Of a DNA stretch of 64,000 nucleotides, positions 1,445-54,299 are shown piece after piece; position 1 is the stretch's first letter; every line of letters begins with the position of its first letter. The stretch covers positions 104,423,279 to 104,487,278 of the forward strand of contig NC_044037.1 of assembly GCF_901765095.1 (NCBI RefSeq), in the 5' to 3' direction. The notes beneath the pieces were generated by a model that saw only the letters and a program-made list of their open reading frames with translations, was not told where the DNA came from and ran no database searches. Source of the DNA: Microcaecilia unicolor. Lineage: Eukaryota. A program made the position numbers and the translations under genes.

Positions 1445-2632
1445 AGAACAAAATATCAGAGCACATTCTAAAGCATGAACTAATGAGACAAAGTCAGCAT
1501 GGATTTAGTGAAGGGAAGTCTTGCCTTACCAATCTACTTTCTTTGAAGGGGTAAACAAACATGTCGACAAAGGTGAGCCGGTGGATATTGTGTATCTGGA
1601 TTTTCAGAAAGCATTTGACAAAGTCCCTCATGAAAGGCTCCAGAGTAAATTAGAGAGTCATGGGATCGGAGGTAGTGTATTGTTATGGATTAAAAACTGG
1701 TTGAAAGATAGGAAACAGAGAGTAGGGTTAAATGGTCACTATTCACAATGGAGAAGGGTAGTTAGTGGGGTCCCTCAGGGATTTGTGCTGGGACCGTTGC
1801 TATTTAACATTTTCATAAACTAGCGAGGTTACCAGATTTGCTGACGACACAAAGTTGTTTAAGGTCGTCAAATCGCGGGAAGATTGTGAAAAGTTGCAGG
1901 AAGATATTGCGAGACAAGGAGTCTGGGCGTCTAAATGGCAGATGACGTTCAATGTGAGCAAGTGCAAAGTGATGCATGTGGGAAAGAGGAACCCAAACTA
2001 TAGCTACGTCATGCAAGGTTCAGCGTTAGGAGTCACGGAACGAGAAAGGGACCTGAGAGTCATCTTCTGCTCAGTGTGCTGCTGCGACTAAGAAAGCAAA
2101 TAGAAGGTTAGGTATTATTAGGAAAGGGATAGAAAACAAAAATGAAGATATTATGCCACTGTACCGGTCCATGGTGCGACTGCACCTAGAATATTGTGTT
2201 CAATTCTGGTTGCTGCACCTCAAAAAATACATAGTGGAATTAGAAAAGGTGCAGAGAAGGGCAACGAAAATGATAAAGGGGATGGGACAACTTTCCTATG
2301 AGGAAAGGCTAAAGCAGCTGGGGCTCTTCAGCTTGGAGAAAGGCGGCTGAGGGGTGATATGATAGAGGTATATAAAATAATGAGTGGAGTGGAGTGGAAA
2401 AGATAGATATGGAGCGTCTGTTTACGCTTTCCAAAAATACTAGGACAAGGGGGCATGCGAAGAAGCTGGAATGCAGTAAGTTTAAAACAAATAAGAGAAA
2501 ATATTTCTTTACTTAGCGCGTAATTCGACTCTGGAATTCGTTGCCGGACAATGTGGTTGGGGCGGTTAGCTTGGCAGAGTTGAAGAAGGGTTTGGACGGC
2601 TTCCTGAAGGAAAAGGCCATAGAATGTTATTA
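1445..2632 (+). mobile_element. CR1-like LINE, 5'-truncated degenerate copy (ORF2 RT region with stops and frameshifts)
   Basis: Plus ORFs 1521..1823, 1855..2091 and 2153..2350 encode [60 protein letters not shown] and PLYRSMVRLHLEYCVQFW..ERLKQLGLFSLEKG. They are homologous piece by piece to the intact copy at 2633-4063. Confidence 0.85.
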
Positions 2633-4330
2633 AATGGACGTAGGGAAAAATCCACTATTCCTGGGCCAAGCAGTACAAAATGCTTTGCTCTGTGGATCTG
2701 TGTAATACCGGAAGATTGGAGGGTAGCCAATGTTACTCCGATTTTTAAGAAAGGTTCCAGAGGAGATCCGGGAAATTATAGACCGGTGAGTCTGACGTCG
2801 GTGCCGGGCAAGATGGTGGAGGCTATTATTAAGAATAAAATTGCAGAGCATATACAAAAACATGGACTGATGAGACAAAGTCAGCACGGATTTAGTGAAG
2901 GGAAGTCTTGCCTCACCAATCTAATGCATTTTTTTGAGGGGGTAAGCAAACATGTGGACAATGGGGAGCCGGTTGATATTGTATATCTGGATTTTCAGAA
3001 GGCGTTTGACAAAGTGCCGCACGAAAGACTCCTGAAGAAATTGCAGAGTCATGGAATCGGAGGTAGGGTATTATTATGGATTAAGAACTGGTTGAAAGAT
3101 AGGAAGCAGAGAGTAGGATTGCGTGGCCAGTATTCTCAGTGGAGGAGGGTAGTTAGTGGGGTCCCGCAGGGGTCTGTGCTGGGTCCGTTGCTTTTTAATG
3201 TATTTATAAATGACCTAGAGATGGGAATAACTAGTGAGGTAATTAAATTCGCCGATGACACAAAATTATTCAGGGTCGTCAAGTCGCAGGAGGAATGTGA
3301 ACGATTACAGGAGGACCTTGCGAGACTGGGAGAATGGGCGTGCAAGTGGCAGATGAAGTTCAATGTTGACAAGTGCAAAGTGATGCATGTGGGTAAGAGG
3401 AACCCGAATTATAGCTACGTCTTGCAAGGTTCCGCGTTAGGAGTTACGGATCAAGAAAGGGATCTGGGTGTCGTCGTCGATGATACGCTGAAACCTTCTG
3501 CTCAGTGTGCTGCTGCGGCTAGGAAAGCGAATAGAATGTTGGGTGTTATTAGGAAGGGTATGGAGTCCAGGTGTGCGGATGTTATAATGCCGTTGTATCG
3601 CTCCATGGTGCGACCGCACCTGGAGTATTGTGTTCAGTACTGGTCTCCGTATCTCAAAAAAGATATAGTAGAATTGGAAAAGGTACAGCGAAGGGCGACG
3701 AAAATGATAGTGGGGATGGGACGACTTTCCTATGAAGAGAGGCTGAGAAGGCTAGGGCTTTTCAGCTTGGAGAAGAGACGGCTGAGGGGAGATATGATAG
3801 AAGTGTATAAAATAATGAGTGGAATGGATCGGGTGGATGTGAAGCGACTGTTCACGCTATCCAAAAATACTAGGACTAGAGGGCATGAGTTGAAGCTACA
3901 GTGTGGTAAATTTAAAACGAATCGGAGAAAATTTTTCTTCACCCAACGTGTAATTAGACTCTGGAATTCATTGCCGGAGAACGTGGTACGGGCGGTTAGC
4001 TTGACGGAGTTTAAAAAGGGGTTAGATAGATTCCTAAAGGACAAGTCCATAGACCGCTATTAAATGGACTGGAAAAATTCCTCATTTTTAGGTATAACTT
4101 GTCTGGAATGTTTTTACGTTTGGGGAGCGTGCCAGGTGCCCTTGACCTGGATTGGCCACTGTCGGTGACAGGATGCTGGGCTAGATGGACCTTTGGTCTT
4201 TCCCAGTATGGCACTACTTATGTAGTTATGTATGTACTTATATTGTGACCTTAGCCACTGTCGGAGAAAGGGTGCTGGGCTAGATGGACCTTTGGTCTGT
4301 CCCAGTGTGGCGATGCTTATGTCTCTGCCT
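2633..4330 (+). mobile_element. CR1-like LINE, 5'-truncated copy with intact 479-aa ORF2 C-terminal portion (RT domain) plus its 3' UTR tail
   Basis: ORF 2624..4063 carries RT motifs: [82 protein letters not shown] and FTQRVIRLWNSLPENVV. The 3' tail (GCCAGGTGCCCTTGACCTGGATTGGCCACTGTCGGTGACAGGATGCTGGGCTAGATGGACCTTTGGTC) occurs twice in tandem at 4130-4210 and 4240-4320. Confidence 0.9.
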
Positions 4331-7300
4331 TTCTCCCTTCTCCAACATCCGTTATCCCTGTCTCTTTCCAGTCCCCAGCATCCATTCCCCCACCTCTTCC
4401 CCCACATATGTCCCCATTTTCCTCCACATATGCTTTTGTTTCTCCCCCAACAAAGTATATGTCCTCTTTTCTCCTTCTTTCTCTTAGAACATCTGCCCCT
4501 TTCTCCCACCATCATCTGCCATCTCAGCCCCATTCTCCCAGCTTCAACAGCAGACTTATCTTCACTCTAACTCCCCTTCTCCTACCTGTTCCCTTGTCAG
4601 CTCCCTGCCCATGCATCAGACCCTTCTCTCAACATGATGCGCCCTTCTCCTACCCCAGTGCTTGTCAGCATCTCCCCTCTGTCTCTTTATTCTCCCTTTT
4701 ACATGTCCATCTCATCTCTCTCTTCCCTACCCCCTCTCTCAATGTGGTTCAGTATTTCCTCTGAGACCGCCTTCCTTTGCTCCTGTTGTCACAGTCTGTC
4801 ACAGCCCACAGCATCAGCAGCAGTAAACAAACAACTTTGCACCTGCTGCAAAGCCTAATTAGGTCACTACTGTTCCCTGCACCCTCCAATTCATACTTCC
4901 TGTTTCTGAAGGAGTGGGAGTTGGCATAGGTTAAAAGGCTCCACAGCAGGTGTTTTGAATTTGTTTTACTGCGGTAGCTGCTGCAGCCCAGCAACAGAAG
5001 CAATGTGTGTGCGTGTGCATGTATGTTATATACAATGGTGACAAGCGTTCAGGTATAAGACCCTGTATGATATGTTGGTAACTAGGGCAGTGGAAAATAA
5101 AATGACTTGTTCAGGGGTACATAGAGGGGCATTTTTGATGATGTCTTAAGTCCAATTTTGGACGTTTTGCTAAAAACATCCAAAATTCAAGTGGGGAATA
5201 TAGCCATTTTCAAAACAGAAAAACGTCTATCTTTATTTTTTTTAATAACTATTTGCTAGATGTTTTTGTGGACTGTGTGTTATTCTTCTTGGTCATTTTT
5301 GAAAAATACACAAAAACAAACCATTGGTATGTAGGAGGAGCCAGCATTTTTAGTAAACTGGCCACACACACAGCTCAGGAGAGCAGTGGGGCACCCTAGG
5401 GGACAGTGCAGTGGACTTCAAATAAATGCTCGCAGGTACACATTTCACCATTGCTCCCTTATCTTGTCTGTTGAGCCCACCCAAAACCCACTACCCCCAA
5501 CTGTACACTACTACAATAGCCCTTAGGGGTGAAGGGGGCACCTATATGTAGGTGCAGTGGATTGCTGGTGAGTGTTGGAGGGCTCACAGTTTCCACTATG
5601 AGTGTAACAGATAGGGGGAGGTATGGGCCTGGGTTGACCTGTTGCACCCAACACTAGACTACTCCAGGGACCTGTATGCTGCTGTAATGAACCCGAGTAT
5701 AACATCTGAGGCTAGCAGAGGCTGGTAATGTTTTTAATCACATTTTGGAGGGTGGGAGGGAATCAGTGACCACTAGGGGAGAAGGGGAGGTCATCCCTGA
5801 TTCCCTTCTATGGTCATCTGGTCATTTAGAGCTCTACTTTGTGGCTTATTCATGAATAAGACAGGTGTAGACCAAAATGTGCAATTTATAGCCCTGGAAG
5901 TTTTTGTTTTGTTCCATTATGGCTGAAAAACGTCAAAGTGTTAGGAATACCCAGCTCAAATCTCTTACACGCCCCCCCCCCCCCCCCTCCCCGGTGACTT
6001 GAACACACTTTCGACAGACTTCATAGAAAAAAGTCTAAAATTGGTTTCAAAAATACCAATTTCGACATTTTGGTGAGAAAAACACCCAAGTGCAGATTTG
6101 TGCCACTTTTTGAACATTTTACTCTTTTGAAAATGAGCCCCATAGCGTGTTAATTTTTTAGGAATGACTTGAATATTGATTTGCAGCTCATTGCTATATA
6201 TCTATTCCTTTGCATTTTAATAGGCTGTCACCTAGGGTTGCAGCTTCCAGGGGTCCAGCAAAGAGCAGCAGTGGTCAAAGCAAAATAATAGAGCCGCAAA
6301 GAACCATCAGCCCGTACTTTTATAAATTTCATATTTAACATTATGCTGGTTAATATTCAGCTGGCAGCGGTCAGTGTTTTTTTAAATGCTTACCACCGCG
6401 GGCAGAATTAAGCCCTGCTGGATCCTGTGCGGGTCCCAGCCAATATTCAGTTGGGAGCCGCATAAGACACTTAGCTGAATATCAGTCATACCTGCATATG
6501 GGAATCAGGTGCCCTCCCCCCTCCCCCCAATCTCCCTGGACAATTAAAGCCCCTGATCAAGAACCCAATTCCTTCACCCTCATAGGCCCCCATGCCTACC
6601 TTGGATAGCTCTGGACTGGTCTGAAGGGTCTAAACGAAAGTAGATTAGCAGGTAGGATCTAATTTATCCTTTCTTAGCATCACTCCAAACTGATGGGAGT
6701 ACCAGCGCAGTAAACTTCAAGCATGGGCCCCTGCGAACCCCGTAAACAAGACACACAGACCAAAGGCCATATCCTAAATAGTTTGAACATATACTAGATC
6801 TTGTCTCACTAAGGAATGCAAAGAGGACCAAATGGCAGACTTACAAATCTCCTACAAAGGCACTGAAGAGCTGTCTGCCCACAAGGTCAACTGTTCTCTG
6901 CTGGAATGGGCTTCAGGGCCTTTGGCAGCAACTCTTCTTTGAGAATATATGGTGGCACAATTGCTTCCTTTATCCACTTTGGACACAGCCTCACCTTGCT
7001 TCAAGCCACCAAATAAAATGAATAAAACACTCTGAGCAACAAAACTCTTCCAACCTGTGTATAAACCCACATGGTGCCCCTCTGATTTCCAGTCAATGCA
7101 CCTATTGCTGCTCCTCAATTCCATTGGCCTCCCCCAATGCAGGCAATGCAATAGCTTGGTTAACATGAAAGTCTGCCACTACCTTAGGTGGCAGTATGAG
7201 CACTACTTCTTCCTTGAAAAACAACAGATAGGGTTTGCTGCACCATGACTAGGCCTGTAACTCAGAAATTCTCCTGGCTGATTAAATAGCTACCAGAAAC

Positions 7301-9435: not shown

Positions 9436-9960
9436 TCACGCGTTCATGGACTGACAACCTTTCAGAAAAGGGGGTCTACATCTGCAACTATTGCAGTTAG
9501 AGACCTCAAATTTTGGGAAACTTCGTTTAACACCTGACTCGTGCAACAGATAAAACTTGAACAAAATTGGAGAACATGATGGTGGGAACTTTAGACCACT
9601 TGGCATGGAATGACCCTTTACTACATTCTCTGGCAACAAATTCCAGAGTTTAATTACACATTGAGTGAAGAAACATTTTCTCCGATTCGTTTTAAATTCA
9701 GTACTTTGTAGCTTCATCGCGTGCCCCCTAGTCCTAGTATTTTTGGAAAGAGTAAACATGCAATTCACATCTACCCATTCTACTCCACTCATTATTTTGT
9801 AGACCTCTATCATATCTCCCCTCAGCCATCTTTTCTCCAAGCTGAAAAGCCCTAGCCACTTTAGCCTTTCCTCATAGGGAAGTCGTCCCATCCCCTTTAT
9901 CATTTTTGTCGCCCTTCTCTGTACCTTTTTCTAATTGAACTATAACTTTAAGATGCGGTG
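9436..9960 (-). mobile_element. CR1-like LINE 3' fragment
   Basis: Minus ORF 9436..9903 contains MIKGMGRLPYEERLKWLGLFSLEKRWLRGDMIEVYKIMSGVEWVD..FTLSKNTRTRGHAMKLQSTEFKTNRRKCFFTQCVIKLWNLLPENVV, which matches the CR1 ORF2 C-terminus at 3700-4000. Confidence 0.85.
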
Positions 9961-12229: not shown

Positions 12230-12780
12230 GAAGCTTCCCATCCTCCCCCTTTCCCCTCTGAGGGGCTGTCCAAGGCAGGGCCGCCGAGGGGGGGGGGGGG
12301 GGGGCTGGCAGGGGGGACAAAATTCCCCGGGCCCGGGCCTCCAAAGGGGGCCCGGCGCCGGGGGTCTCTCTCCTTCTCCTGCTCCCAGGCCACCGGCGCT
12401 GCAGTCCCTGGTCTCACCTGCTTCCCTCGGCTCTGTCGACAGCCCCCCTCCGTCTGCCACAGGGCCACCTGCATTCAAATCGGCAGCGCCTCACCTCCTT
12501 GTGTAAGCAGCAGATCACCTCCCTTCGGGCCTTCCCTCAATGTCCCGCTCTCGTCTGATTTAACTTCCTGTTTCCGCGAACGCGGGACACAGGGAGGGCC
12601 CAAAGGGAGGCGATCTGCTGCTTTCACACGGAGGTGAGGCGCTGCTGATTTGAATGCAGGGGGCTCGGTGGTGGACTGAGGGGGGCTGTCGACGGGGCTG
12701 GGGGTGGGCGGCCTTGCCCTGGATCAGTCTCTCGGTGGCCCTGGTCCAATGATCCTATCCAGCTGGGGGCACTATTGTCC
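12230..12780 (+). repeat. Family-B long palindromic element (poly-G/C terminus, GGGGACAAAATTCCCCGGGCCCGGGCCTCCAAAGGGGGCCCGGCGCC arms, central loop ..TGTCCCGCTCTCGTCTGATTTAACTTCCTGTTTCCGCGAACGCGGGACA..) just downstream of the MVP 3' UTR
   Basis: 12480-12560 and 12585-12665 are reverse complements (cagcgcctcacctcc..gatcacctcccttcgggccttccctc / gagggagggcccaaagggaggcgatc..ggaggtgaggcgctg). Outer arms 12290-12420 mirror 12660-12780. Confidence 0.8.
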
Positions 12781-13256: not shown

Positions 13257-13397
13257 TCACTCCCGTTTATCCTGGCCCCCTGGGAGGGTTTTGGGCAGAA
13301 TCCCTAGTAGCCCACTGGCAGCACTGAAGAGGTTGATTGGTGTTGAGCCATCTGTAATGAGAGTGGAGTGTAGTCCCAGACCCTGCAGTAGCTTCAC
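13257..13397 (-). CDS. MVP: MVP terminal coding exon ([46 protein letters not shown], stop TGA at 13259..13257)
   Basis: Acceptor ttcacag|GTG. Matches human [32 protein letters not shown]. The C-terminal tail is shorter than in mammals. The 3' UTR extends below 13257; no canonical AATAAA was found by eye within about 500 nt. Confidence 0.8.
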
Positions 13398-15881: not shown

Positions 15882-15939
15882 CTGCAGAGAGAGAGAACGA
15901 ATGAATTTACATGCCCTAGGCCAGGGGCGGACTGGCCAT

Positions 15940-16330
15940 TCGGGCAACCACGCAGTGCCAGAGGGCCCAGAGGCTCTGCCCAGAATGCCGCTGGTGATCT
16001 AGTGGCCTCAGCGGAGGGAACATGTTCTTTCCTGGCTGGCCTGCCGCTATTCCCCCCCCCCCCCCCCCCAGCACCACCGTATTTTAAAAATGGCGGCCGA
16101 GACTAGTCTCGCAAGATTACCATGGGAAGTCTCTGCTGCCATTTTGAAAACACGGCAGTGCCAGCAAACGGGGGAATTGCAGAAGCACAGCGGGCAAGAA
16201 AGAACATGCCCCCCCCCCCCCCCCCCCCCACAGAGGCTACCAGACTACTAGGACCCCTCAAGTAGGACTGGGGCAGTGGGGGTGGCGACAGGGGGGTATC
16301 AGGCAGCAGCTGGGCTGGGGACACAGACCA
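15940..16330 (+). repeat. Palindromic element flanked internally by two C20 homopolymers (16058-16078, 16211-16230)
   Basis: ggaacatgttctttcctggctggcctgccgctattCCCC(20) ... gcgggcaagaaagaacatgCCCC(20). The inner segment aaaatggcggc..gctgccatttt is partially self-complementary. Confidence 0.6.
16058..16078. repeat. C20 homopolymer (one of more than 15 poly-G/C tracts of 14-24 nt in the window)
   Basis: Other poly-G/C tracts lie near 5969, 12288, 14241, 16211, 18000, 18579, 22987, 24105, 25837, 26427, 27001, 32291, 39572, 40417, 40489, 44896 and 57707. Most sit at the ends or centres of the palindromic elements. Confidence 0.9.
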
Positions 16331-16424
16331 CCCTCAGTCCACCCCTGCCCTAGGCACTTTAATTTGGAACGCAGAGGGATGGGTAAAGGTCTCATGTTCC
16401 ATAGCTCCTCCTGGCTCCTGTTAC

Positions 16425-16569: not shown

Positions 16570-16974
16570 CTGAAAATAAGAGATAGAGACGGAGAAAATG
16601 GGGAGAGAAAAAATAATAATACAAAACACCAGGCAGATCAATATTCAGCACAGTTCAAATAGACAGGAGGCATTTACTAACCTGTGTTAGGCAAAGAACT
16701 TGCATTAATGTGCATTAGTTAGTAAATTGGCCACAAGGAGAATAATGGAGCTTGCGCTATATATATCATATCTAATAAAACGCACCTCCAACGTTCTGAA
16801 GCTGACTGCGTGGCTGTTTGGCTGAGGCATTCGTGCGCTGCTCTGCTGTAAGGCTACTGACTGAACGTCACATAGTTCCGGGAACGTCAGCCACAGCACT
16901 GACCAACCGCATGAGGCCCCGCCCCTGCCACAACGCCATGCCCCCCCAGGTTGCCGCCACCAGGCATGCAGGCT

Positions 16975-17260
16975 CGGCCCTTCTCTCTCTGTTAGCTCTG
17001 GTCCCGCCCTCATTTCCTCTTTCCGCAATGAGGGCGGGACCAGAGCTAACACAGAGAGAAGGACCGAGGCTGCACGTCTTTAAACACTGCTTTCCTGGGA
17101 AGATGATTTTTAAAACTTGGAGCGAGTGGGCTCGCCTCCAGCCTTTCCCTTCCCTCACTCAGTGTCCCGTCTTCTTGTGATGATGTATTTCCTGTTTCCA
17201 CAAGGACGGGACACTGTGTGAGACAAGGGAAAGGCTGGAGGCGAGCCTGCTGTGTTGTGT
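16975..17260 (+). repeat. Two adjacent family-A hairpin palindromes (16975-17075 and 17100-17260) in the MVP intron between exons 11 and 10
   Basis: gccttctctctctgttagctctggtcccgccctcat..atgagggcgggaccagagctaacacagagagaagg, and gagtgggctcgcctccagcctttcccttccctcactcagtgtcccgtc..gacgggacactgtgtgagacaagggaaaggctggaggcgagcc. Confidence 0.85.
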
Positions 17261-17670: not shown

Positions 17671-18329
17671 CTGAGGAGAGAAGGAGAAAATGGTAAGACA
17701 GAAAGGCTGGGAAAAGTGAAAGGAAGGAAAAGAGAAAAGTGCAGAGCATGTAACTCAATAGGAGAGCACTTGGGTTTGATTCCCCCTGGGAAGGGGCTCT
17801 TTCACTATACATTGGTAACACTTACTTGCCAGACGTATGGCGCACATATCCCAGGAAAGGGAGAATGTTATAGACTAGAGGGAAAACCCCTTGGTAGTTT
17901 CTTATTAAATTTTATGATACTGAAGCGCAATAAAGGTTGAGTCCAAGCAGGGCTGCCAAGAGACTGAGCCAGGCCTAGGGCAGGGCCACCGCATCCCCCC
18001 CCCCCCCCCCCCCAGGATCATCGAAGCTGCTGTATCCCCAGGATCGCCCCACCTCCGCCCCCCCCGGATCGCTGTCACTGCTGCCCCCCCCCCAAACTCC
18101 AAATACCTTGGCTGGCAGAGATCCCGAGGCCCTGCAAGCAGAAGAAATCTTCCTCCAGCTCTGCAGTGCTCTTCACTCCGCTGCCTCAATGTCTGCCTTG
18201 CCCCTGTGGCTGCTTTTCCCCTCAGGCCGTGCATGATCAGTTTTGAATCCGACCACGCCTGACGTGAGAGAAAAAGCAGCCGCTTGGTAGGCAATGCAGC
18301 AGAGAGTGAAGAGCAGCGCTTGAGGAAGA

Positions 18330-18610
18330 CCTCTTCTGCTGGCAGAGCCTGGGGGGGTGGGGACCCCTGCCAGCAAAACCAGATGCCCTGGCCTGAAGCC
18401 CTGCTGCGTCTGCTCCTTCCCAGCCTCCAAGGGGGGCCCGGCACTGGAGTTCTCTCTCTCCTGCTCCTGTCGGGACGTGATCACCAGGGTCCTGTCAGGA
18501 GCAGGAGAGAGAGAGAGAGAGAGATCCTGGCGCCGGGCCCCCCTTGGAGGCTGGGCCCGGGGAATTTTGCCCCCCCCCCCCCCCCCCTTGGCGGCCCAGA
18601 GTCCAAGTGA
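18330..18610 (+). repeat. Family-B-related palindromic element in MVP intron 9 (poly-C18 at terminus; (GA)n in the loop)
   Basis: ctccaaggggggcccggcactggagttctctctctcctgctcctgtcgggacgtgatcaccagggtcctgtcaggagcaggagagagag..cgccgggccccccttggaggctgggcccggggaattttgcccccccccc. It shares the GGGGCAAAATTCCCCGGGCCC..CCTCCAAGGGGGGCCCGG motif with 12300-12360. Confidence 0.8.
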
Positions 18611-22085: not shown

Positions 22086-23089
22086 GCAAAATCCAAATAA
22101 ATAAAATTTAGGCACTCACATTACAGAATGAGGTGGTTCAATTCATGATCTGTATAGCACTGGTACAAGTCTGTCTAACCATCTCAGCACTGAATAGTGC
22201 TGGGGCAGCCTTAGGGGTGTAGCAACTATTATACATATAGCAGTAATCAGCTGCCATTGGTGCTGACAACATGTGTCATTAACTCAGCGCTGCCACCTAT
22301 CCATATTTTCTAAGTGCCATGGATGGCATTTAAAAAGCTGCAAGCACTGCCATTGCTTAAAAGCGATCATTTAATGTTTGTATAGTACCTAGGAGTTGAT
22401 AAACACAAATGTTAATTGAAAGGCAGTTTACTATTATTTAAGTTTTCACAGCTCAAAACTATTCACAGAGGAGAGAGCTGCCCTGTACAAGGAGAGATAA
22501 ACACTTGTGGACCACTTCACTAGGTGAAAGACCAATGATTTAAGAACCCTAGAGCTAGAGAATGACACAGGGACATGGATCTGTGATAAACCGCAGTAAT
22601 CCACAGTAAATCCGCGCTAAAAGAAAAAAAATCTAGCCGTTTACCGCTGATGTGGGAGCAAAACTTTTACCGCCCCACGGGAGCAGTAAAAAAAACTTTG
22701 CTCTCGCGGTTTAAAAAAACAAAGTTGCAGTTACCATTTCCGGTCCAGCATCTCCGTGACTGCCTTCCTCCCTCTCTCCCGCAGTAGCTCTACCTTATGC
22801 AGCCAGACAGTGGTGCGCTGGAGCTGGCTCGTATGAGCAGTTTGTTAATTTTTTAAAAATTTTGGGAGCCGGTTGTTAAACTAACAACCGGCTTCCAAAA
22901 TTTGGGCTCAGGTCCCTTCTCAGCATCTTTGTCCTCCTCCTCCCCTGTGGCTTGTTCCAGTGGCGTAACTACAGGGTGCCTCTGTCTCAGCACCCCCCCC
23001 CCCCCCCAACAATAGTGCCCAGACAGGTGGTTTTTTGCTTTCTCAGGCTCCCTATGCTCCTTGTCCTCACAGTCAGACAGCTGAGCTCT

Positions 23090-23345
23090 CCCTCCCTTCC
23101 TTCGGTTCCGGCCGGCTATCTCTCCTCCCTGTTTCCAGCAGTGAGCCGCGGCGCGGGCAGCGTTGAAGACAGCTGCTTCCGGCTGCCCTGTTCCCATCGC
23201 TGCTTCATCCTGCCTTTTCAACTTCCTGTGAGTGGGACGAAGCAGCGAGACAGACCTGGACAGCCAGAAGCAGCTAACTTCAGTGCTGCCCGCGCTGCGG
23301 CTTACTGCTGGAAACAGGGAGGAGAGATAGCCGGCCAGACCCGAA
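23090..23345 (+). repeat. Palindromic element (arms GGCCGGCTATCTCTCCTCCCTGTTTCCAGCAGTGAGCCGCGGCGCGGGCAGCGTTGAAG)
   Basis: 23105-23165 is the reverse complement of 23275-23340. This explains the two overlapping opposite-strand ORFs of about 200 aa (22853..23458 and 22952..23545). Confidence 0.75.
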
Positions 23346-24546
23346 GAAAGGGAGGAAGAGCTCAAATACCTGACTGCGGGGACAGGGAGCCTCAAAAGAA
23401 AGCAACCAAACCTGTGAGCTACTTTTTCCACGTTCTTGTTCTTTATTGTTGGTACCATTTTTATTTGATCCCACTTATATTTTCAAACATGCCAGCTTGT
23501 GCAGCATACGCATATACACACAGAGGAAGTATAATAACAGAATAACTTTTCATAGGTAGAGTAGTAATTTGCTATAAATTGTAATCAGTGTGTGATTTGG
23601 AGGGACTGGTTATAGAGACCCACGTGTGTGTGTGGGGGTGCTGCAGTGGACCCACGGAAAGGGAGGGGGCTGCTGGACCCGAAGGGGTTGCTGAAGAGAA
23701 GGGAGAAAGACACTGGACCACTGAGGTGAGGGAGGGCTGGCTGGACGGAAGGGAGAGAGGCACGCTGGACCCTTGGGGAGCTAGGGCTGGAGGAAAGAGA
23801 GAGGTGCTGGACCTGTAGGGGAGGAAGGGACACAGAGGGAAGATGCTAGACATCAGGGAACATAGGAATGCATAAGGGAGATGCTGGACATAGGTGGAGG
23901 GTATAGGGATAGGCTAAGGGCTCTCTCTGGCCAGGGGGCAGATGTCCTAGTTGCACCTCCCTAACACCATCTCTGGCATGTGTGATCTTTATATTTTGCA
24001 TCGTATAGGAGGAAATGTATATCTTTCTATTTCTGTGGTGTGGCTTCTTGTAGTTTTACATTAATATATGTTTATCATTTTTGGTCAGCTATTGGCATTT
24101 GTGTTCTGTGGGTGGGGGGGGGGGGGGGGGTGGCTGAGGTATTCTGTTAGCAAGAATTTTCTATGTAGCATTCTGTAGTAATTTGGCTTGTTCAGTTTTC
24201 CTGATAGTGGAGGGGATATTTGTGAGGGGAGACGGGGATTTTGTTGACCCTTGTTCTGTATTGTTTGTGATTTATAAAACAGTTATAAAAAGAAACAATA
24301 TTCTGTACATGTTAATAAAATGATTTAAATATAAAAATCAGAATGAGGCTTGGGGATGGGGCGGGGACAAGGAAACATTTTGTCCCCACGTCATTCTCTA
24401 CCTAGAGCCCTCCTAACAGCAAAGACCTGAGTAGCAGCTATACAGATAACCATATTACATCATCATATTAACACCAGATCCATCCCTGCTTTATCATCTT
24501 CTAGGAGCAGGGACTTTGCTGAATGCACTCTCCTCTTTCCCCTCAC

Positions 24547-26329: not shown

Positions 26330-26690
26330 CCTCCCAACCAGTGGCGTTCCTAGTGTCGACGACACCCGGGGCGGATCGCCGATGCGCCCCCCCGGCGAAA
26401 TGACACCCCCCCCGGGTGCATGCTGCTGGGGGGGGGGGGGGGGGGGGTGCCGCGGCGCGCGCCTGTCGGCTGTGAGTTCGACTCGCTACGCTAAATTCTC
26501 TCGTTTGCTGCAGCTCCCTCCCTCTGCCCCGGAACAGGTTACTTCCTGTTCCGGGGCAGAGGGAGGGAGCTGCAGCGAACGAGAGAATTTAGCGTAGCGA
26601 TTCAAACTCGCAGCCGATAGGCGCTCGCCGCGGCACCCCGCCAGCGGCGTGCACCCGGGGCGGACCGCCCCCACCGCCCCTTGGTACGTC
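26330..26690 (+). repeat. Long GC-rich palindromic element with G21 tract (26427-26447) and central hairpin 26480-26600
   Basis: gactcgctacgctaaattctctcgtttgctgcagctccctccctctgccccggaacaggttacttcctgttccggggcagagggagggagctgcagcgaacgagagaatttagcgtagcgattc. The outer arms (gggcggatcgccgatgcgcc../..cacccggggcggaccgcc) also pair. Confidence 0.8.
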
Positions 26691-27560
26691 ACTGCTCCCA
26701 ACACCTCCCCAAACTATCTCCCCTCTCCATATTTCTATCCTTGGTATTGCAGCCCTACTCATACCTCTCACCCAATTAGCTAGACCCTCAGTCCCCACTA
26801 TTCCCCCACTCTTACACCATATCCAGTCCCCACTTACACTCCCAATACCCAGTCCATCTTAGGATCTGCCATCTTCTGGCCTCCCACCCAGATTCCCTGC
26901 TCTCCTGCATCCCTCATTCCCCCAGCACCTGCCCATCCACTTCCTTCTCCAATATTCATTGACCCTGTCTTTCCTCTTCATTACCTATCATCCAACCCTG
27001 CCCCCCCCCCCCCCCCACACTTTCCCACAGCATCAGCCCATTTCCAGTCCCTGCCTCTCCATCAATCCCCCTTTCCAGTTCCAATCAGTCTGCCTACTAC
27101 CCCTGGATGAATCCTTTTACACAATAATGGCACCTTTTGCCTTTGCCCCTGCTGCTGTACTGCCCTTCTGATGGCTCTGCCATAGCATTTTTAAAAGATG
27201 AAGATAAGCACTTAACAGAAATAGAAGTTTTTTTTCACCTTTTAAAAATTCCACAACAGCCAGCATCAAAACAGTATAGTGGCAGGACTGAAGCCACAAG
27301 CTCCCACTGCTGTGAAGCGGCAGACTGCTGATACAGGCTTTTGGCACTTTAAGCCAGTGCCTCACTGGCTCAGTCCTCATACTGACACTGCTCCTGCTAC
27401 TCCAAATAGACCTCACCACTCTCAGTGCAATCTAACTTGCTAATAAAAGGTAGGATTGGAAGTTGAGTCTACAAGTGTACTACCTCCATATAAGTCAATG
27501 CTGAAGGTTACAGAGTGAAGGCTGGTGGCTGCACTGGGATTAATGTTAGGACATATTTAC

Positions 27561-31199: not shown

Positions 31200-31930
31200 G
31201 GAGTGAGCTCTGAGGAATCTCATAAAAAGCAGGGGCGTAGCCACGGGCGGGCCTGGGCCCACCCAATTTTGGGTCAGGCCCGCCCAGCAGCAAAGTTCCT
31301 GACGGTGATTCCAGTCGCAGGCTCCGCTCGCACTCGCAGCGATTCCCACACGCTGCCTGCCGGCTGCCGCTCAATCTCCTTGCGCTACTAAGCGCTAACC
31401 CGGAAGTCTCTTCTCTGCAGCAGAGACTTCCAGGTTAGCGCTTAGTAGCGCAAGGAGATTGTTGAGCGGCAGCCGGCAGGCAGCGTGTGGGAATCGCTGC
31501 GACTGCGAGCGGAGCCTGCGAGTAGAATCGCCGTCAGGAACACTGCTGCTGGGCGGGCCTGCAAGGAGGGTGAGATGCTGCAGCTGCACGGGGGGGAGGG
31601 AAGACGGGGGACACAGCAGCTGATGGAAAGAAAGATGCTGCACAGGGGGGAGGGAAGATGGAAAGATGAGGCTTGGTTGGTGAGTGAGGGAGATGCACGG
31701 GGAAAAAGGGAGAGATGCAGCAAAGGGGTGGAGGGGTGAGGAAGGGAGAAGTCTTGGCTGTGTATGAGGTGGAGGGGAGGGACACATGCTGCATACAGAG
31801 GGGATAGGTGGGGAGGGGGAGAAATTGTGGGTATAGTGGTGGAGGGAGGGCGGAGCAGAGAAAATTTTGTGCCCACCCAGTTTGGGCTCAGGCCCACCCA
31901 AAACTGGCTGTCTGGCTACGCCACTGCTAA
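31200..31930 (+). mobile_element. TIR-bounded non-autonomous element: about 60-bp terminal inverted repeats (GCAGGGGCGTAGCCACGGGCGGGCCTGGGCCCACCCAATTTTGGGTCAGGCCCGCC) with an internal 270-bp perfect hairpin and an AG/CT-rich body
   Basis: 31220-31275 is the reverse complement of 31865-31925. The internal palindrome 31290-31560 is centred on aagtctcttctctgcagcagagactt. TIR-like half-sites with adjacent CT-rich sequence also occur at 780-850 and 1200-1270. Confidence 0.7.
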
Positions 31931-33289
31931 AAAGACTCTTTTTCCAACCTAATTTGTGAGTTAAATGTTGCTGCACCAGTTTTGTTAGCATTTATAGTAT
32001 GTTATTTGGGAAAACTTTTAAAACAGAGGTGGCAAATTCCTTTTCTATCAAAAGTAAAAGACACAAAACCCGAGCCTCTATCCTCACAAAAAATGGCATC
32101 TGGCAAACTGGAAGAGCAGTAGTGTGCTGGAGCTGACTCGCACCGGCTCACAAGAGCTGGCTGTTAAAAAACACTTTGTGAGGCGGTTGTTGAACAGGCT
32201 GGTACACAGTGGTGTACAGTGAACATCTGTTTTTTTTTCTCCCCACTAAAGGTAACAGCATCGTCCTCATCTCTCCCTCCTCTATCCCCCCCCCCCCCCC
32301 CCACGAGTCCAGCACACCTCTCAACTTTCAATTACTCTTCCAGCTGCACTAGCAGTAACACTACCTGGCCAACTCGGAGTCATTTCTCTGCCAGATCCCG
32401 CCCACACGTAAACAGAAAGTTGCATCAGTGGGCCAGGACATGGCAGAGAAAAGGCTCCAGGTCGGCCAGGTAGTGTATTATCACTAGTGCTGATGGATGA
32501 GTAGTGATGTTTGAAGGACAGCCGGTGATTGGGGGTGGGGGGGTGGGGGGAAGCCCAACCTAAAGCTTAAAGCCCACCTCTTTGCTACTGCTTTCGACTC
32601 CTAACCATGACTCACTTATCACCCCTACCACTGCAATTTCCCCACCCCTAGCTGTCTGTTCGTCTGTCCAATTTAGATTGTAAGCTCTGTTGAGCAGGGA
32701 CTGTCTTTTCATGTTAATTTGTACAACGCTGCGTAAGTCTAGTAGCGCTATAGAAATGTTTAATAGTAGTAGTAGTAGTAGGAAGGACTGGACTTGTGAA
32801 GTAGGGTAAAAGATTTGTTTTTTTTTTGGGGGGGGGGGCTGGGGGAGAAGTGTTGGATTTGCAGGTGAGGGGGAGAGGAGAGATATTGGACTTTTGAGGC
32901 GCACTGGGGCAGGAAAAATGCCAGACAATAGATGAGGAAACCAGGGAGAGAGAGGGGAGATGCTGGGTGAGGGGTGGGAGAGAGTGATTAAGAGAGAGAT
33001 GCTGGACTGTGGGATGCAGGGAAGAGAGGAAGAGAGATGCTGGGCCTACAAGCACATGCGACTATAGAAATCCAAACACTGCTCCTTCCCGAATTGTGTA
33101 GGCACTAAACCACATTTAGCAAGCTTTCACTTCTAATATGCTATTTACTGCCTACATGGATAGGCTAGGTTTCCTGCAGCCTCTCTCCCCTTGAAGCCAC
33201 TGCCTGAAAGAACATTAAAGCTGCATTTTTTTTCAGGGGGAGGGAGGAGGAAGGGGAGGACAGGGAGCTGCTGGACCATAGGGGATGAA

Positions 33290-37282: not shown

Positions 37283-37479
37283 CTGAGCAAGAAGAGTCAA
37301 AAACAGACCATTATGAGGAACAAGACATATGAAAGCAAATTTTAGATACAATGTAGATATCGGAACTGAGACATCCAGGTCAGGATGTCTCAAATTCCAC
37401 TAGCGTTTTACAAAATGGCTCTGCCGACGTAATCTTTTCTAAATTCATGTAGGAACAATGATGGATACTTATAGCCAGG

Positions 37480-37870
37480 GCCGCTGAAAGGGGGGAGGGG
37501 GGGCAGGAGGGACCCGGCGCCGCAATCCCCGATCTCACCCGCCCTTGGCTCCGTCGACTGTCCGCCACTGGGCCGGGCCCCCCGCATTGAAATCATTACA
37601 GCGCCTCACCTGTCACCTCGCTCTGTGACTGAAAGCGCAGCAGCGGCAGATCGGATTCGCCTCCCTTCGGGCCTTCCCTCCCTGTGTCCCGCCCTCGTGT
37701 GATGTAACTTCCGTGAGGGCAGGGCACAGGAAGGGAAGGCCCGAAGGGAGGCGAATCCGATCTGCGGCTGCACTTTCAGTCAGGGAGCGAGGTGACAGGT
37801 GAGGTGCTGTAATGATTTCAATGCAGGGGGCCCAGCCCAGTCTCTCGGTGGCCCTGCTTATAGCCCGCTA
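37480..37870 (+). repeat. Family-B long palindromic element in MVP intron 1 (same loop family as 12230-12780)
   Basis: Arms ..cattgaaatcattacagcgcctcacctgtcacctcgctc..gcagcggcagatcggattcgcctcccttcgggccttccctccctgtgtcccgccctcgtgtgatgtaacttccgtgagggcagggcacagg.. pair with their reverse complement at 37735-37830. Confidence 0.85.
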
Positions 37871-40849
37871 CTCTCCCTAAAACTAGGCTCAGCGTGGGTT
37901 AACAAAAGAAAAACTATGAGACTGATTGTTTCTGGAAACAAAAAGATGAAGATGCTCCAATATCTACAGGAAGTGCATTCCAATATTTAGTCATGCAAAA
38001 TAATGCAGACTTTTCCTGAAAACCTTTAAGTTTGATTCCTCTAAACGAAGGAACTCTCAGCATAAGATGGTAGAGAACATTATTCTTGTAGCTATCATAT
38101 AAATAATGTGACTAATGAAGTCAGATGAGAAGGGCAAAAGCCCTCTAAAATCATAACAACAAAGCAACATATTTTTAAAAGTATTCTTGCTCTTATTGGA
38201 AGCCGATGCAGTTCAACCAACTAAGGAGATACATGGTCATACTTAGCTTGGCAAAAAATTAGCCTAGCAACTGTATTCTGGATCTAATGTAACCTTTGCA
38301 GTTGTTTTTCTGCGATTCCTACATACAGAGAATTACAGTAGTCTAGTTGCGACAACATCAACAGCTGTACCAACACCTTAAAATGGCTCGGGAAAAAATA
38401 AGAACAGACCAGCCATAGCTGTTCCAGCTTAAAGACCTTTTGTGACAGATTTTTAATCTGAGCATCCATAGTCATAGTAAAGTCTAGGATAACCCCTAGC
38501 ACTCTTCTTTTACGATCTACAATCAACTGAGATCCATTGAAACATGAGACATAATTTGGAATATTAGTCTCACTTACACCATACCATAAAATCTTTGTCT
38601 TATCTGCATTTAGTTGAGCTTAACAAAGACCAAACACTTAATTTCCTCCATACAGTAACTGATTTTAGTAAACAAGCTATCTTGAGATAATCCAGTTGAA
38701 ACCAATACGAAAATATGATATGCTGGCTACATGTGGTGGCGGCAGCATCCATTTGCAAACATTGGTGTCTACAGTATTGTCACGGTCACCCCAGTGCTCC
38801 CTTACCTCCGTGTCAGGGCCCAGTGTGACAAGCTCTGCTGCCCTCCGACCTGCTCTTTCCTCCGACCTTCCTACAGCTGTGCATGCTCGTTTGGTGGAGG
38901 CTGGATGGGGGTTGGCGCTGCTCAGGCCCGTCCCTCACTGACATCATCACCCTGGGCCTTCTTCTGCAGTTGCTACTCTGCTTTGCAACAGGTCATCCTG
39001 GTTCCAGCTTCCAGCACAGCTTCAGATTCCAGCCTTGGTTCCAGCTCAGCTTCTGCTTCCTGCCCTGGTTCCAGCCTCCAGCTCAGCTTCAGCTTCCAGC
39101 CTTGGTTCCAACTCCAGCACAGCTTCAGCTTCCAGCAAAGGTCCTGGTTCCAGCTCCAGCACAAATTCAGATTCAGTTCTGGGTACAGCTTCCTTCAACG
39201 CCTCTACTGGAGCAATCCCTTCTGCAGGGACTCGTCCGCCGTTTGCTACAGTCTGTCTGTCCCCTGGGCAGGCAGGCACTACTGTTCCACTACAGTCCTA
39301 GGGCTCACTCATCCTAAATCGTGACATATGTATGTGCCGTGTTGCCTCTGTTGATATATCTATGTTTTCCAAGCTCACAGAGTCCAATATCATTTGCCAC
39401 CACTTTTGAGGGGGATAAAAATACTAGGGGATTTAGGGGACAATATCCCCTAATCCCTACTGTAGAATACTGCACAAAATGAGCACCTTTAAAGAACTTA
39501 GATGTCCCCAGGAGTAGCTGTGAATCCTGATGTTAATCTTGAAAAACCGCACAAGCCAAAAAAAAAAAAGGGGGGGGGGGGGGGTCAAAGCCACCATATC
39601 TGTTTTATAACAGAAGTGTGTGTGTATGTGTTCATATATATAGTTGCATATGGTTTACCTTCATACAGGACCCCTGACGAAGGCTACTTTGCCGAAACAC
39701 AGCTCGTGTCTAGTTTTGCCTGTATGGACTATTGATGAATAAACTATTTGGAACATTAAACCTGTATGTCCTTGAAATTTGTTGTCTTTTGACCTGTGGG
39801 TTTGGAGGCTTCCATCCCTTTTTCAGCTTGTGCAGTGCAGCTTCTTGTGGAAGTGTTTTGCTCTTCTTTTTGTTTTTTTCTCTGATCTTGGAGAACAAAT
39901 AGGTATTCCATTTCTAAAATGGGGAATATATGAGTATATATTAACCCCAACCTAGTCCCACTCAAAACACATCCAGACCATGCCTCCTCACCACATACAT
40001 GTACTCTCAATCTGGACATGTATATCCCAGTTTTCTAAAACTGGGATTTAGACATGTATATGATAAACATGTCTAAGTGCCAGTTTATAACCACCTTTAA
40101 TTTATATGTAACTTTTTATGTGCAGTGTGCTTGATTTATTACCCCAAGAAACTGATTCCTGTTATGAACTGTATCTTTTGGATCTTTTACCGCACTGAAG
40201 ACCTCAATAGATTTTTTTTTTGTTGTTGTTATTTTCCTCCCACCTTCTTCCAAATTATGTTTTGAAGAAAGCCACAGCAGAATCAGAAGACGGCGTCCTT
40301 TTAGTGTTACTGCTTCTCCTCCCCTCATTCTAATGTGACAAGACTGTTGGGTCTCAGACAGTGGTGTGCTGGTAAATGTTTAACAACAAGCTCTCTCCAC
40401 GGTCCACCTCTGCGCCCCCCCCCCCCCCCCCACATCTACCTCTGCACCCCCCCAAATTGTAGAGCTGGCTATAGCCGGGGAAAGAGCCGGGGGGGGGGGG
40501 GGGGGGGCAATGCATTACTCTCTCCAGGAAAAAAAAATTAAATGATCCCAGGTTCCAATCTAATTCATGTTTAATGTGGGATAAAATGCCATAAATAAAT
40601 AAATATAAACTTTTAATGTTCAGCACCTGATTTTCAAAGTGGACATATTCCAAGCACTATAATGAAAATAAAATGATTTTTTTCTACCTTTGTTGTCTGA
40701 TAACTGTTTTTCTGATCATGCTGGCCCAGTATCTGATTCTGCTGCTATCTGTCCTCTTAACTTCGTTTCCAGGGCTTCCTTTCCATTTATTTCTTTACTT
40801 TCCGCCTTTCTTCATCATTTCTTGCCCTACATCCGTAAGTAAAAACTGT

Positions 40850-44099: not shown

Positions 44100-44570
44100 C
44101 CTCTCCTCCGAGTTCCAAGCCCCCCTCCCTCTCCCTCCATCCCGCCTCCATTCCAGACCCCCCTCGCTCCCTCCGAGTTCCAGGCCCAGTGGCCCGCCCT
44201 CCCTCCGACTGAGTTCCAGCCCAACCTCTTCTCCCACTCCAACAGTGCTTCGCCTGCCCCTCGCCTTCCTGCATGCCGCCCAGAATTTAAAAGTCATCTT
44301 ACCGGGGTCTCGGCGGCAGCAGTGAAATGCGAGCAGGCTCGGTGAGTCGACGCTTCAGCAGGCTGCCTTCCCTTCTCTTCGCTCTCAGCTCTGCCTCTGG
44401 TCCCGCCCTCATTTCTTGTTTCTGCAAGGGTAGGACCAGAGGCAGAGCGAAGAGAAGGGAAGGCAGCCCGCTGAAGCGCCGACTTGCCAAGCCAGCTCGC
44501 CTTTCACTGCTGCCGCCGGGACCCCAGTAAGATGACTTTTAAATTCTAGGCGGCATGCAGGAAGGCGAGG
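44100..44570 (+). repeat. Composite element: tandem CTCCGAGTTCCAGGCCC units (44100-44270) joined to an approximately 300-bp near-perfect palindrome (44270-44570)
   Basis: Arms 44270-44415 and 44425-44570 are reverse complements (..gaatttaaaagtcatcttaccgggg.. / ..ccccagtaagatgacttttaaattc..). The loop core is ctctggtcccgccctcatttcttgtttctgcaagggtaggaccagag. A (TA)17 microsatellite lies just upstream at 44057-44090. Confidence 0.8.
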
Positions 44571-44639
44571 GGCAGGCGGACTCTGTTGAGGGAGATGGGA
44601 GAAGACGTCAGGCAGCGGGCTGGCTCCTGGCTGGGAGCT

Positions 44640-44900
44640 TCCGGCTTCCGGTTCCGGTGGGGAAAATTGCATGATGCGGTGCCCTTGAAGGCAGGCGCCC
44701 CCCTGCGGTGCTTACCGGGTTAGGCCGGCCCTGCTGCCATGGACCCGGATGATTACATTAACACGATATTGCGTTAATGTAATCATCCGGTTCCTGACTC
44801 CTGGCACACAGGAGTACTGGAGCAGGAGAGGACAGAGCGAGGGAGCAGCGCAGCAGTGATTCAGAGAGAGAAAGGTGCAGGGACAGGTGGCGCGTTCGGG
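44640..44900 (-). promoter_or_regulatory. MVP: Candidate MVP promoter and non-coding first exon (TATA-less, tandem ETS/GABP-like CCGGAAGC motifs, CpG-rich)
   Basis: On the minus strand this region reads ..accggaaccggaagccggaagctccc.., i.e. tandem GGAA/ETS cores. A possible exon-1 donor ccggtaagcacc lies at about 44708-44722. The region sits about 2.5 kb upstream of the ATG exon, whose acceptor implies an upstream non-coding exon. It also contains a perfect 20+20 nt palindrome at 44745-44790. Confidence 0.3.
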
Positions 44901-51932: not shown

Positions 51933-52090
51933 CCGCATAGGGCCTCGCGCTCAAGGCGCTTCGGGAGCCTTCCTTTCCCTTCCCTCGTTCAGCTCTGGTC
52001 CCGTCCTCGTTTTGAGGGCGGGACCAGAGCTGAGTGAGGGAAAGGAAGGCTCCTGAAGCGCCGCCCAGCAGCTCGCATGCTTTTCACGGC
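51930..52090 (+). repeat. Hairpin palindrome (family A core GCTCTGGTCCCGTCCTCGTTTTGAGGGCGGGACCAGAGC) adjoining the 52130-52460 tandem array
   Basis: Arms ..gcgcttcgggagccttcctttcccttccctcgttcagctctggtcccg.. and ..cgggaccagagctgagtgagggaaaggaaggctcctgaagcgc.. are reverse complements. Confidence 0.8.
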
Positions 52091-53800: not shown

Positions 53801-54299
53801 GTTTGTTAAAACTGAATATACCACCTTTCATAAAATTCAAAGTAGTTTACAATAATTAAAATACATAATATAGCACACAAAGATAAAGAACTGCAACTCA
53901 TAAGTTTGGAAGCCTGCACCGTAGGAAAATTGCAAACCACTTTAACAGAGAAACCCAGTTTTGATGAGGTCAGTTGAGCACTATGAAAATCAACATACCT
54001 GGGTTCTGTTGAAATGTTTGTAGCATCTTTCCTATGAATACTATAGGAGGATAGGTGTAGAGTGAGGTCAGTCCCAGGGTATTTGCTAAAGCATCCTTCA
54101 CCAGTTGGTCTGGGGTTAGGAAGACTGAACAATGAAGCAGCAGTTTTGTATTTTTGATGCTAGTGGATAGATTTATTTGAGGGTCCCCCAAGCTCAGAAG
54201 ATAGGCTGCATGACAATCTGTCAGCCACTTGATTGTCAAGGCTGAAGAGATGAGTTGCTTCTATTTTGCACATGACTCACTTCAGTTATTGGAAAAGTA

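Follow-up and report, generated by a model that had tools for sequence, protein, structure and literature searches.

Three regions of the window (the whole 64-kb stretch of Microcaecilia unicolor DNA that was analysed), here called E1, E2 and E3, are copies of one non-autonomous hAT-like transposon, or MITE, as is seen from the anatomy of their terminal inverted repeats (TIRs) and target-site duplications (TSDs). An 8-bp TSD combined with YARNG ends is the signature of the hAT superfamily, whose members move by cut-and-paste, and non-autonomous hAT-N families are abundant in the genomes of frogs. The copies are bounded by a 13-nt TIR, CAGGGCCRCCRAG, which E1 and E3 carry at either end, and in E2 the YARNG end is mutated to CTGGG at one of the two ends. 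The TSDs of the three copies match at 7/8, 8/8 and 8/8 positions. With sizes of 381, 468 and 652 bp, the family is represented in the 64 kb by these three copies and by one lone terminus. In all features that can be tested the elements are hAT MITEs, and they form a new family with an internal mononucleotide microsatellite in what is otherwise an ordinary mobile element. A first-pass annotation had described a second palindromic family with homopolymeric termini; a second element family bearing G/C homopolymers does exist, but the poly-G is not its terminus, as it begins 12 nt into the element, immediately following the 13-nt TIR, which is in turn flanked by the 8-bp TSD. The account as a whole, in which a hAT MITE family carries an inherited poly-G as cargo and the G/C microsatellites have grown by slippage, is probably correct. 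It is based on the TIR and TSD anatomy, the common position of the tract, the enrichment of G/C runs in elements, the occurrence of long runs opposite short seeds and the bimodal run lengths, all of which were seen directly.

E1 is a 468 bp element on the plus strand (12276-12743). Its left end consists of the TIR CAGGGCCGCCGAG followed by a G17 tract (12288-12304, plus strand) that starts 12 nt inside the end, and its right end reads ...CAGTCTCTCGGTGGCCCTG. The flanking TSD is GTCCAAGG on the left (12268-12275) and GTCCAATG on the right (12744-12751). Internally E1 contains a long inverted repeat (12424-12704) with arms of 114 nt (12424-12537 and 12591-12704) that are 86% complementary, and its apex bears a GTCCCGC.CTC motif that is common to the other palindromes of the window. 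As single-stranded DNA the element is predicted to form one long hairpin of -183.8 kcal/mol (z = -18.8).

E2 is the largest copy at 652 bp and lies on the minus strand (17948-18599), so that its poly-G end is on the right. It is flanked on both sides by the TSD AGTCCAAG; the left end is CAGGGCTGCCAAGAGACTG and the right end is the reverse complement of CTGGGCCGCCAAG followed by G18. This tract, which appears as C18 on the plus strand (18570-18587; G18 in element orientation), is located 12 nt inside the end, the same position as the G17 of E1. A second tract, C19 (17995-18013, plus strand), is found 47 nt inside the other end and forms part of the first Cn-(A)GGATC module. The internal palindrome of E2 (18419-18555) is composed of the module GCCTCCAAGGGGGGCCCGGCRCC...CTCCTGCTCC and an inverted copy of it, matches at 74% over 150 aligned positions and includes a (GA)n stretch.

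E3 is a 381 bp copy on the plus strand (37476-37856) with the TSD CTTATAGC on both sides. At the place of the poly-G in E1 and E2 it carries a decayed G tract, GGGGGGAGGGGGGG (37490-37503), and its hairpin is built from two pairs of arms (37567-37644 with 37764-37841, and 37640-37696 with 37715-37771). E1 and E2 have in common the sequence poly(G)-CAAAATTCCCCGGGCCC...GCCTCCAA.GGGGGCCCGGCGCC at 76-82% identity, and E1 and E3 a hairpin core at 67% identity over 256 nt. The apex of the hairpin in both E1 and E3 carries the motif GTCCCGCCCTC, and since this motif recurs in the other palindromes of the window, the hairpin that had been set apart as ‘family A’ is an internal module of E1 and E3. The earlier statement that all three regions share poly(G)-arms around a related hairpin therefore holds for the arms of E1 and E2 and for the hairpin of E1 and E3, but not for E3 in full, where the G tract is degenerate and the CAAAATTCCCC...CCAAA block is missing. 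The regions themselves were rightly picked out, but their real bounds are those given here, and the first reading had taken in only the right third of E2.

A further E-like terminus is located on the minus strand at 44898-44969. Its reverse complement reads CAGGGCTACTGAGAGAC..., and it has a G16 tract (44898-44913) 56 nt inside. A second end and a TSD were looked for to match the terminus at 44969 and were not found; it probably belongs with the palindrome at 44251-44578. When the elements were searched by BLAST against the locus of the major vault protein gene (MVP) of Rhinatrema, the E family was not found, and only homopolymers and one unrelated MITE, F6, gave matches. Around E1-E3 there is no alignable Rhinatrema sequence at the MVP locus.

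Other hAT-like elements are present besides the three copies. When the window was scanned systematically for 14-nt inverted ends between 8-bp duplications, 18 candidates were returned, eight of which have YARNG at both ends, a configuration that occurred neither in four block shuffles nor in the reversed sequence. E2 adds a ninth such element, having been left out of the eight by its one CTGGG end. After subtraction of a nested element the hAT-like elements are 190-650 bp long, and among the large open reading frames of the 64-kb window only LINE reverse transcriptase was recognised, and neither a hAT transposase ORF nor an autonomous hAT element; the small size and the lack of a transposase ORF in the window together identify the elements as non-autonomous, that is, as MITEs. 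The LINE fragments are of the CR1 type, and a protein search with the CR1 reverse transcriptase of the window matched chiefly proteins of birds and turtles and none of Rhinatrema. Scans of the window for Rfam families and tRNAs gave no matches, so that nothing points to an origin from a SINE or a structured RNA. DNA transposons are about 20 times scarcer than retrotransposons in the caecilian genome (PMC10195157), which makes the MITE-rich MVP locus locally atypical.

F1 is a different hAT-like MITE of 426 bp (15922-16347) with the TIR CAGGGGYGGACTG and the TSD CCCTAGGC on both sides. It contains two runs, C18 (16052-16069) and C21 (16209-16229), which are 130 and 118 nt from its ends. F2 (22556-24400; TIR TAGAGAATGAC, TSD CCTAGAGC on both sides) hosts a nested element (22958-24185) whose left TIR is CAGTGGCGTAACTACAG and which is flanked on both sides by the repeat GCTTGTTC; in the nested element a C15 run (22993-23007) is located 35 nt from the left end and a G17 run (24114-24130) 55 nt from the right end. 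F3 is a MITE of 356 bp (26339-26694; TIR CAGTGGCGT, TSD CTCCCAAC on both sides) with a G20 run in its left arm (26428-26447). Three further hAT-like elements (796-1269, 31230-31926 and 62683-62875) are devoid of any run. In addition, a segment at 40360-40520, the far boundary of which is uncertain, begins with the hAT-like end CAGTGGTGTGCTGG and carries C17 (40415-40431) and G19 (40489-40507); this segment, together with its two runs, is absent from the alignable orthologous site in Rhinatrema.

As assembled, the 64 kb contain 18 runs of pure G or pure C, 14-21 nt in length, where dinucleotide shuffles lead one to expect none; A/T runs of at least 14 nt number six. The excess noted on first inspection is thus borne out, as are the individual runs quoted there: two C20 tracts at 16058 and 16211 are found within a few bases as the C18 and C21 of F1, and a C18 and a G19 at 40417 and 40489 as the C17 and G19 of the segment just described. 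Eight of the 18 runs lie inside TIR- and TSD-bounded elements, 12-130 nt from an end, although such elements make up 8.6% of the window (8 observed vs 1.56 expected, permutation P about 2e-4). Three more (40415, 40489 and 44898) are 55-146 nt from a lone hAT-like terminus, and two (14239 and 25830) are in fragments with a motif common to F1. The first of these two, C16 (14239-14254), sits in a fragment with the GGTGGTCTAGTA motif, which is found in F1 and in the flank of C19 (25830-25848), and the fragment has no intact TIR or TSD. The remaining five runs are in no recognisable element, namely C16 (5972-5987), C16 (27001-27016), C17 (32286-32302), G14 (57707-57720) and G15 (39570-39584), the last directly after an A12. 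When the flanking 200 nt of each run were compared by BLAST with the window and the Rhinatrema locus, few paralogs were obtained, and hence these five stay unclassified.

The first-pass annotation had placed most of the runs in palindromic elements, either at an end or in the centre. The eight runs within TIR/TSD elements lend this partial support, but the link to palindromes themselves is not upheld: in a systematic scan of the window none of the 18 runs fell within the span of a long palindrome, whether arm or centre, and the proximity of runs to palindromes was not significant (P = 0.29). That observation as a whole is consequently confirmed only in part, as the excess, the quoted runs and the common arms stand, and the boundaries, the homopolymeric terminus and the palindrome link do not.

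The coding exons of MVP were located on the minus strand (42153-13272) by tblastn with vertebrate MVP sequence. The joined exons match M. unicolor MVP XP_030064741.1 at 98% identity and the MVP of Rhinatrema bivittatum at 88%, and at diagnostic residues they agree with XP_030064741.1 and not with a paralog that is 94% identical. Of the 18 runs, 16 fall in the interval 12.3-44.9 kb, which corresponds to the gene body and not to the LINE-rich flanks, and 14 are in MVP introns, in agreement with the intronic location first suggested. E1 is an exception to that suggestion, as it lies beyond the MVP stop codon (13257-13259), 520-980 nt further downstream. It is also upstream of the only AATAAA (at about 12065), and therefore E1 may be part of the MVP 3' UTR. 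Within the gene the G-rich strand is the sense strand in 10 of the 14 runs, which is not significant. Every run of at least 15 G matches the canonical G-quadruplex pattern, so that the supposed propensity for quadruplexes is confirmed at the level of sequence pattern.

The first-pass annotation had also supposed that the tracts mark the mechanism by which the family inserts. The ends instead show the 8-bp TSDs and YARNG TIRs of hAT elements, and because the TSDs lie outside the inverted repeats and the tract lies inside them, the poly-G is cargo and did not result from integration. The addition of bases without a template where the element inserted was rejected on the same grounds, the tracts being internal to both TIRs and TSDs. 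It is proposed that a hAT transposase encoded elsewhere would recognise the 13-nt TIR in trans, excise the element and reinsert it, and that a staggered 8-bp cut in the target would give rise to the TSD. The poly-G would already have been present in the common ancestor of the E copies and would have spread with them through transposition.

Instead of being passive cargo, the subterminal G run could be a functional part of the transposon end that is selected at the level of the element and not left to neutral microsatellite dynamics, acting as a spacer, a G-quadruplex or a stretch of unwound DNA that aids transposase binding or excision. Such a role is compatible with its location right next to the TIR in E1 and E2 and with the remnant in E3, and also with the likewise subterminal runs of other hAT-like elements (12-130 nt from an end) and the presence of a run at both ends of the nested element at 22958-24185. 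Yet only one end of the E family has a run immediately after the TIR, the C19 at the other end of E2 being 47 nt in, and the two arms of F3 have G20 vs only 7 nt. Moreover, the three run-free hAT-like elements of the window appear to do without, a related Rhinatrema MITE has T18 instead, and five runs are outside recognisable elements in the window and in Rhinatrema alike. A function at the transposon end is accordingly considered quite improbable.

How the tracts grew is suggested by several places in which a long run is paired with a short one. The left arm of F3 reads GCTGCT-G20-TGCCGCGGCG, and in perfect register the right arm has only the 7-nt GGCGGGG. At 40415, ACCTCTGCG-C17 is followed by the direct repeat ACCTCTGCA-C7. 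The Cn-(A)GGATC modules of E2 have n = 19, 4 and 8 and are followed by a C10 run (18084-18093). In an orthologous alignment near the MVP 5' end, a G17 of Rhinatrema aligns with Microcaecilia GAGGGGAGGAG. Interrupted tracts are found at 32531 and 37490. Transposable elements are known to seed microsatellites, as exemplified by the poly-A tails of Alu and the 3' ends of snake CR1 elements, whose copies spread seeds that later expand. Judging from the sequences, the long-run and short-seed pairs fit the birth of microsatellites by slippage and their subsequent spread by seed-bearing transposons, and polymerase slippage, already raised in the first-pass annotation, is the best explanation for tract growth. 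The 14-21-nt G/C runs would thus be mononucleotide microsatellites that arose when short G-rich seeds were extended by replication slippage, and several hAT-like MITE families would hold many of these seeds in their GC-rich subterminal parts.

Run lengths show a bimodal distribution. Counts of G/C runs are 36, 18, 2 and 0 at lengths of 6, 7, 8 and 9 nt, after which six runs measure 10-12 nt and 18 measure 14-21 nt, whereas A/T runs fall off steadily with length. Runs beyond about 9 nt thus appear to pass quickly into the 14-21-nt class. MITEs are one vehicle for the runs and not the whole cause, since five of the 18 runs are outside recognisable elements and none of the five runs at the Rhinatrema locus is in a TIR/TSD element.

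A different origin for the tract of the E family would be filler DNA, either untemplated or produced by repeated slippage, at the deletion junction formed as abortive gap repair turned a longer hAT element into the MITE, which would be a modified form of the first-pass idea that the tracts mark a mechanism. The end-to-end homology of the E family does stop exactly where the G run starts (CAGGGCCGCCGAG|G17 vs CAGGGCCACCGAG|AGACTG), as expected of such a junction. Against this, similar runs occur deep inside other elements as well as outside elements, the long-run and short-seed pairs point to gradual growth, and the window yielded no autonomous parent for comparison. Filler at a junction is the least probable of the origins considered here and carries very little weight beside growth by slippage.

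The number of G/C runs of at least 14 nt was compared at the MVP locus of five species, of which only two are caecilian. The M. unicolor window (CLR+10x) has 18 runs in 64 kb and the Rhinatrema locus, which was sequenced with the same VGP data types, has five in 41 kb, or 0.28 and 0.12 runs per kb. One run (C21) was found in 29 kb of the cichlid Archocentrus, one in 44.5 kb of the fish Myripristis and none in 49 kb of the frog Bombina; the fish loci thus have 5-10 times fewer runs, and the GC content of the Myripristis and Bombina loci is 0.40-0.43. The assemblies of Archocentrus and Myripristis are presumably also CLR+10x. The excess of G/C runs is hence common to the MVP locus of Rhinatrema and is not seen at the two fish loci or the one frog locus.

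These comparisons bear on the question of whether the runs are real, as the reference could contain G/C runs that are spurious, or short G runs inflated in the CLR consensus or by short-read polishing, with GC-rich hairpin-forming MITEs being merely the sites where consensus calling fails. PacBio CLR data underlie the M. unicolor reference, which was polished by Arrow and, using 10x linked reads, by freebayes (PMC10195157), and the VGP paper names short indels as the commonest error of the CLR consensus. The run lengths are confined to a narrow band, and the 14-21-nt mode could be a ceiling of consensus calling instead of biology; long runs also face a short G run in the partner arm, where inflation would look identical, and the C21 in 29 kb of the cichlid comes from an assembly that is likewise taken to be CLR+10x. 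On the other hand, neither assembly paper mentions an artefact of this kind. The two fish loci, presumably from the same pipeline, show one run each vs 18 and five in the caecilians. CLR consensus is more apt to shorten homopolymers than to lengthen them, which also counts against inflation. Furthermore, the tract is found at the same homologous position in two copies that are about 20% diverged, the third copy has an interrupted version, and interrupted tracts occur at both 32531 and 37490. The contrast between species, the common position at about 20% divergence and the decayed versions together argue for real tracts, so that an artefact of assembly or polishing is regarded as unlikely and the assembled tracts, in their existence and their lengths, are probably real. 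The poly-G artefact of two-colour Illumina chemistry was set aside, given that the tracts are found within long-read contigs and as both G and C.

The elements of the window resemble known hAT MITEs in having an 8-bp TSD and short TIRs that begin in 5'-YARNG (CAGGG, CAGTG, TAGAG), a length of 190-650 bp, several copies in and around a gene and a strongly hairpin-forming interior. Unlike the known ones, the E family has at one end a G homopolymer of 17-18 nt directly after the inverted repeat, and its interior is mosaic, with E1 and E3 containing the common ‘family A’ hairpin of the window and E2 a different palindrome. The Ac-mMITEs of pineapple are similar in that a MITE and a simple repeat occur together, but they insert into (TA)n so that the repeat flanks the element (PMC8449440), whereas the G runs of the window are inside the TIRs, the TSDs are unique 8-mers and the repeat unit is a G/C mononucleotide. 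None of the window elements is flanked by a microsatellite on both sides, as an Ac-mMITE is.

A closer likeness to the runs themselves is found in C. elegans, where poly-G/poly-C tracts are over-represented and show the same contrast in length distribution between G/C and A/T (Zhao, O'Neil and Rose 2007, PMC2211496). The tracts of both are in excess, bimodal in length, located mostly in introns or near genes and long enough to form G-quadruplexes. They differ in density, which for runs of at least 18 nt is far lower in C. elegans, and in their association with transposons, which are unmentioned for C. elegans (PMC2211496) and in which about half of the runs of the window ride. In C. elegans the maintenance of the tracts depends on a helicase of the FANCJ/DOG-1 type. 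Runs of at least 18 nt number seven in the 64 kb of the window (about 109 per Mb) and one in the 41 kb of Rhinatrema, so that the two caecilian loci have tens to about 100 per Mb, as compared to about 4 per Mb in C. elegans and about 0.06 per Mb in human (200 in 3.3 Gb; PMC2211496). The literature on caecilian poly-G, homopolymers or G-quadruplexes, on hAT MITEs with poly-G and on polishing artefacts, yielded nothing relevant beyond assembly methods. It may tentatively be suggested, as a possibility that is still doubtful, that caecilian genomes have a far denser population of 14-21-nt G/C homopolymers than other vertebrates, and that their seeding and spread are for the most part due to GC-rich hAT MITEs.

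The identification of the transposon is in itself ordinary, and it settles the nature and the mode of insertion of the ‘second palindromic family’. Should the runs instead be an artefact, they would represent a class of systematic error in CLR-era reference assemblies at GC-rich hairpin repeats. If they are real and genome-wide, caecilians would offer a vertebrate parallel to the G/C tracts of C. elegans and a model for the maintenance of G-tracts, with hundreds of thousands of intragenic sites prone to quadruplexes and slippage, many of them delivered by MITEs. This would bear on replication stress, intron evolution and the development of markers, and would imply a lineage-specific change in the replication, repair or tolerance of G-quadruplex-prone homopolymers, for example in a FANCJ-type helicase or in mismatch repair.

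Sixteen of the 18 pure G or C homopolymers of at least 14 nt in the window lie between 12288 and 44913, a stretch of about 33 kb covering the body of the MVP gene, whereas the LINE-rich flanks hold only two (5972 and 57707); a binomial test, applied post hoc, gives P ~1e-3 for clustering in this stretch relative to the rest of the window. Compound homopolymers occur in the window, where A12 passes directly into G15 (39558-39584) and T10 is followed by G11 (32818-32838), as well as in the MVP locus of Rhinatrema bivittatum (L001), where G12-C-G12 is placed between flanking T runs (L001 32669-32693), and therefore some G runs may originate within or beside A/T runs. An isolated C21 in AT-rich surroundings is found in the MVP flank of the cichlid Archocentrus centrarchus (6731-6751 of its MVP locus, L002). 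It may be genuine, or it may point to an effect of the technology. The Archocentrus assembly is also CLR+10x.

Near the MVP 5' end, a conserved block on the minus strand of the Microcaecilia window (40150-40620) can be aligned with Rhinatrema L001 10180-10480. Within this orthologous alignment the Rhinatrema G17 (L001 10302-10318) stands opposite GAGGGGAGGAG in Microcaecilia. Compared with Rhinatrema, Microcaecilia has an inserted segment here, which contains C17 and G19.

Many long palindromes of the window have in common, at their apexes, the words GTCCCGCCCTC, TGA(C/T)GTAA and ACTTCC(G/T), which are similar to GC-box, CRE and ETS-like words. Apexes of this kind are located at 12538-12590, 16962-17079, 17129-17247, 37697-37714, 44386-44443, 51975-52047 and 56261-56323, and all these palindromes seem to belong to a single superfamily of hairpin modules, at least some of which travel inside hAT-like MITEs. 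A 263 bp hAT-like MITE in the Rhinatrema MVP flank (L001 9467-9729) has target-site duplications that match at 7 of 8 positions and the terminal inverted repeat (TIR) CAGGGTTGCCAA, which is similar to the end CAGGGCTGCCAAG of E2, one of three copies (E1, E2 and E3) of a hAT-like MITE in the window; the Rhinatrema element carries a subterminal T18 in place of the G run. E2 itself contains a second TIR-like word, CAGGGCCACCG, at 17981-17994, 33 nt from its left end and followed by CAT and C19; this word may represent a terminus that was duplicated or is nested. A further hAT-like MITE of 193 bp (62683-62875), with the TIR CAGTGGTTCTCAAC and flanked on either side by the duplication TTCTACAT, is related at 70% identity to a sequence at Rhinatrema L001 7311-7450 and is the only window element found in both caecilian loci.

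CR1-type LINE fragments with an RVT_1 domain are present at 1512-4060, 9439-9930 and 54276-55885. One ORF (2570-4060) matches part of the annotated M. unicolor 'uncharacterized protein LOC115464802' at 99% identity, so that a LINE copy has entered the annotation as a gene.

The MVP stop codon is at 13257-13259, and because the sole AATAAA within 1.7 kb downstream is at ~12065, E1, another copy of the same MITE as E2, may be transcribed in antisense orientation within the MVP 3' UTR. The window's gene encodes P0001, one of two annotated M. unicolor MVP proteins; since P0001 and the second protein, P0121, are 94% identical and are encoded on the same 311-Mb chromosome, they point to a lineage-specific duplication of MVP.
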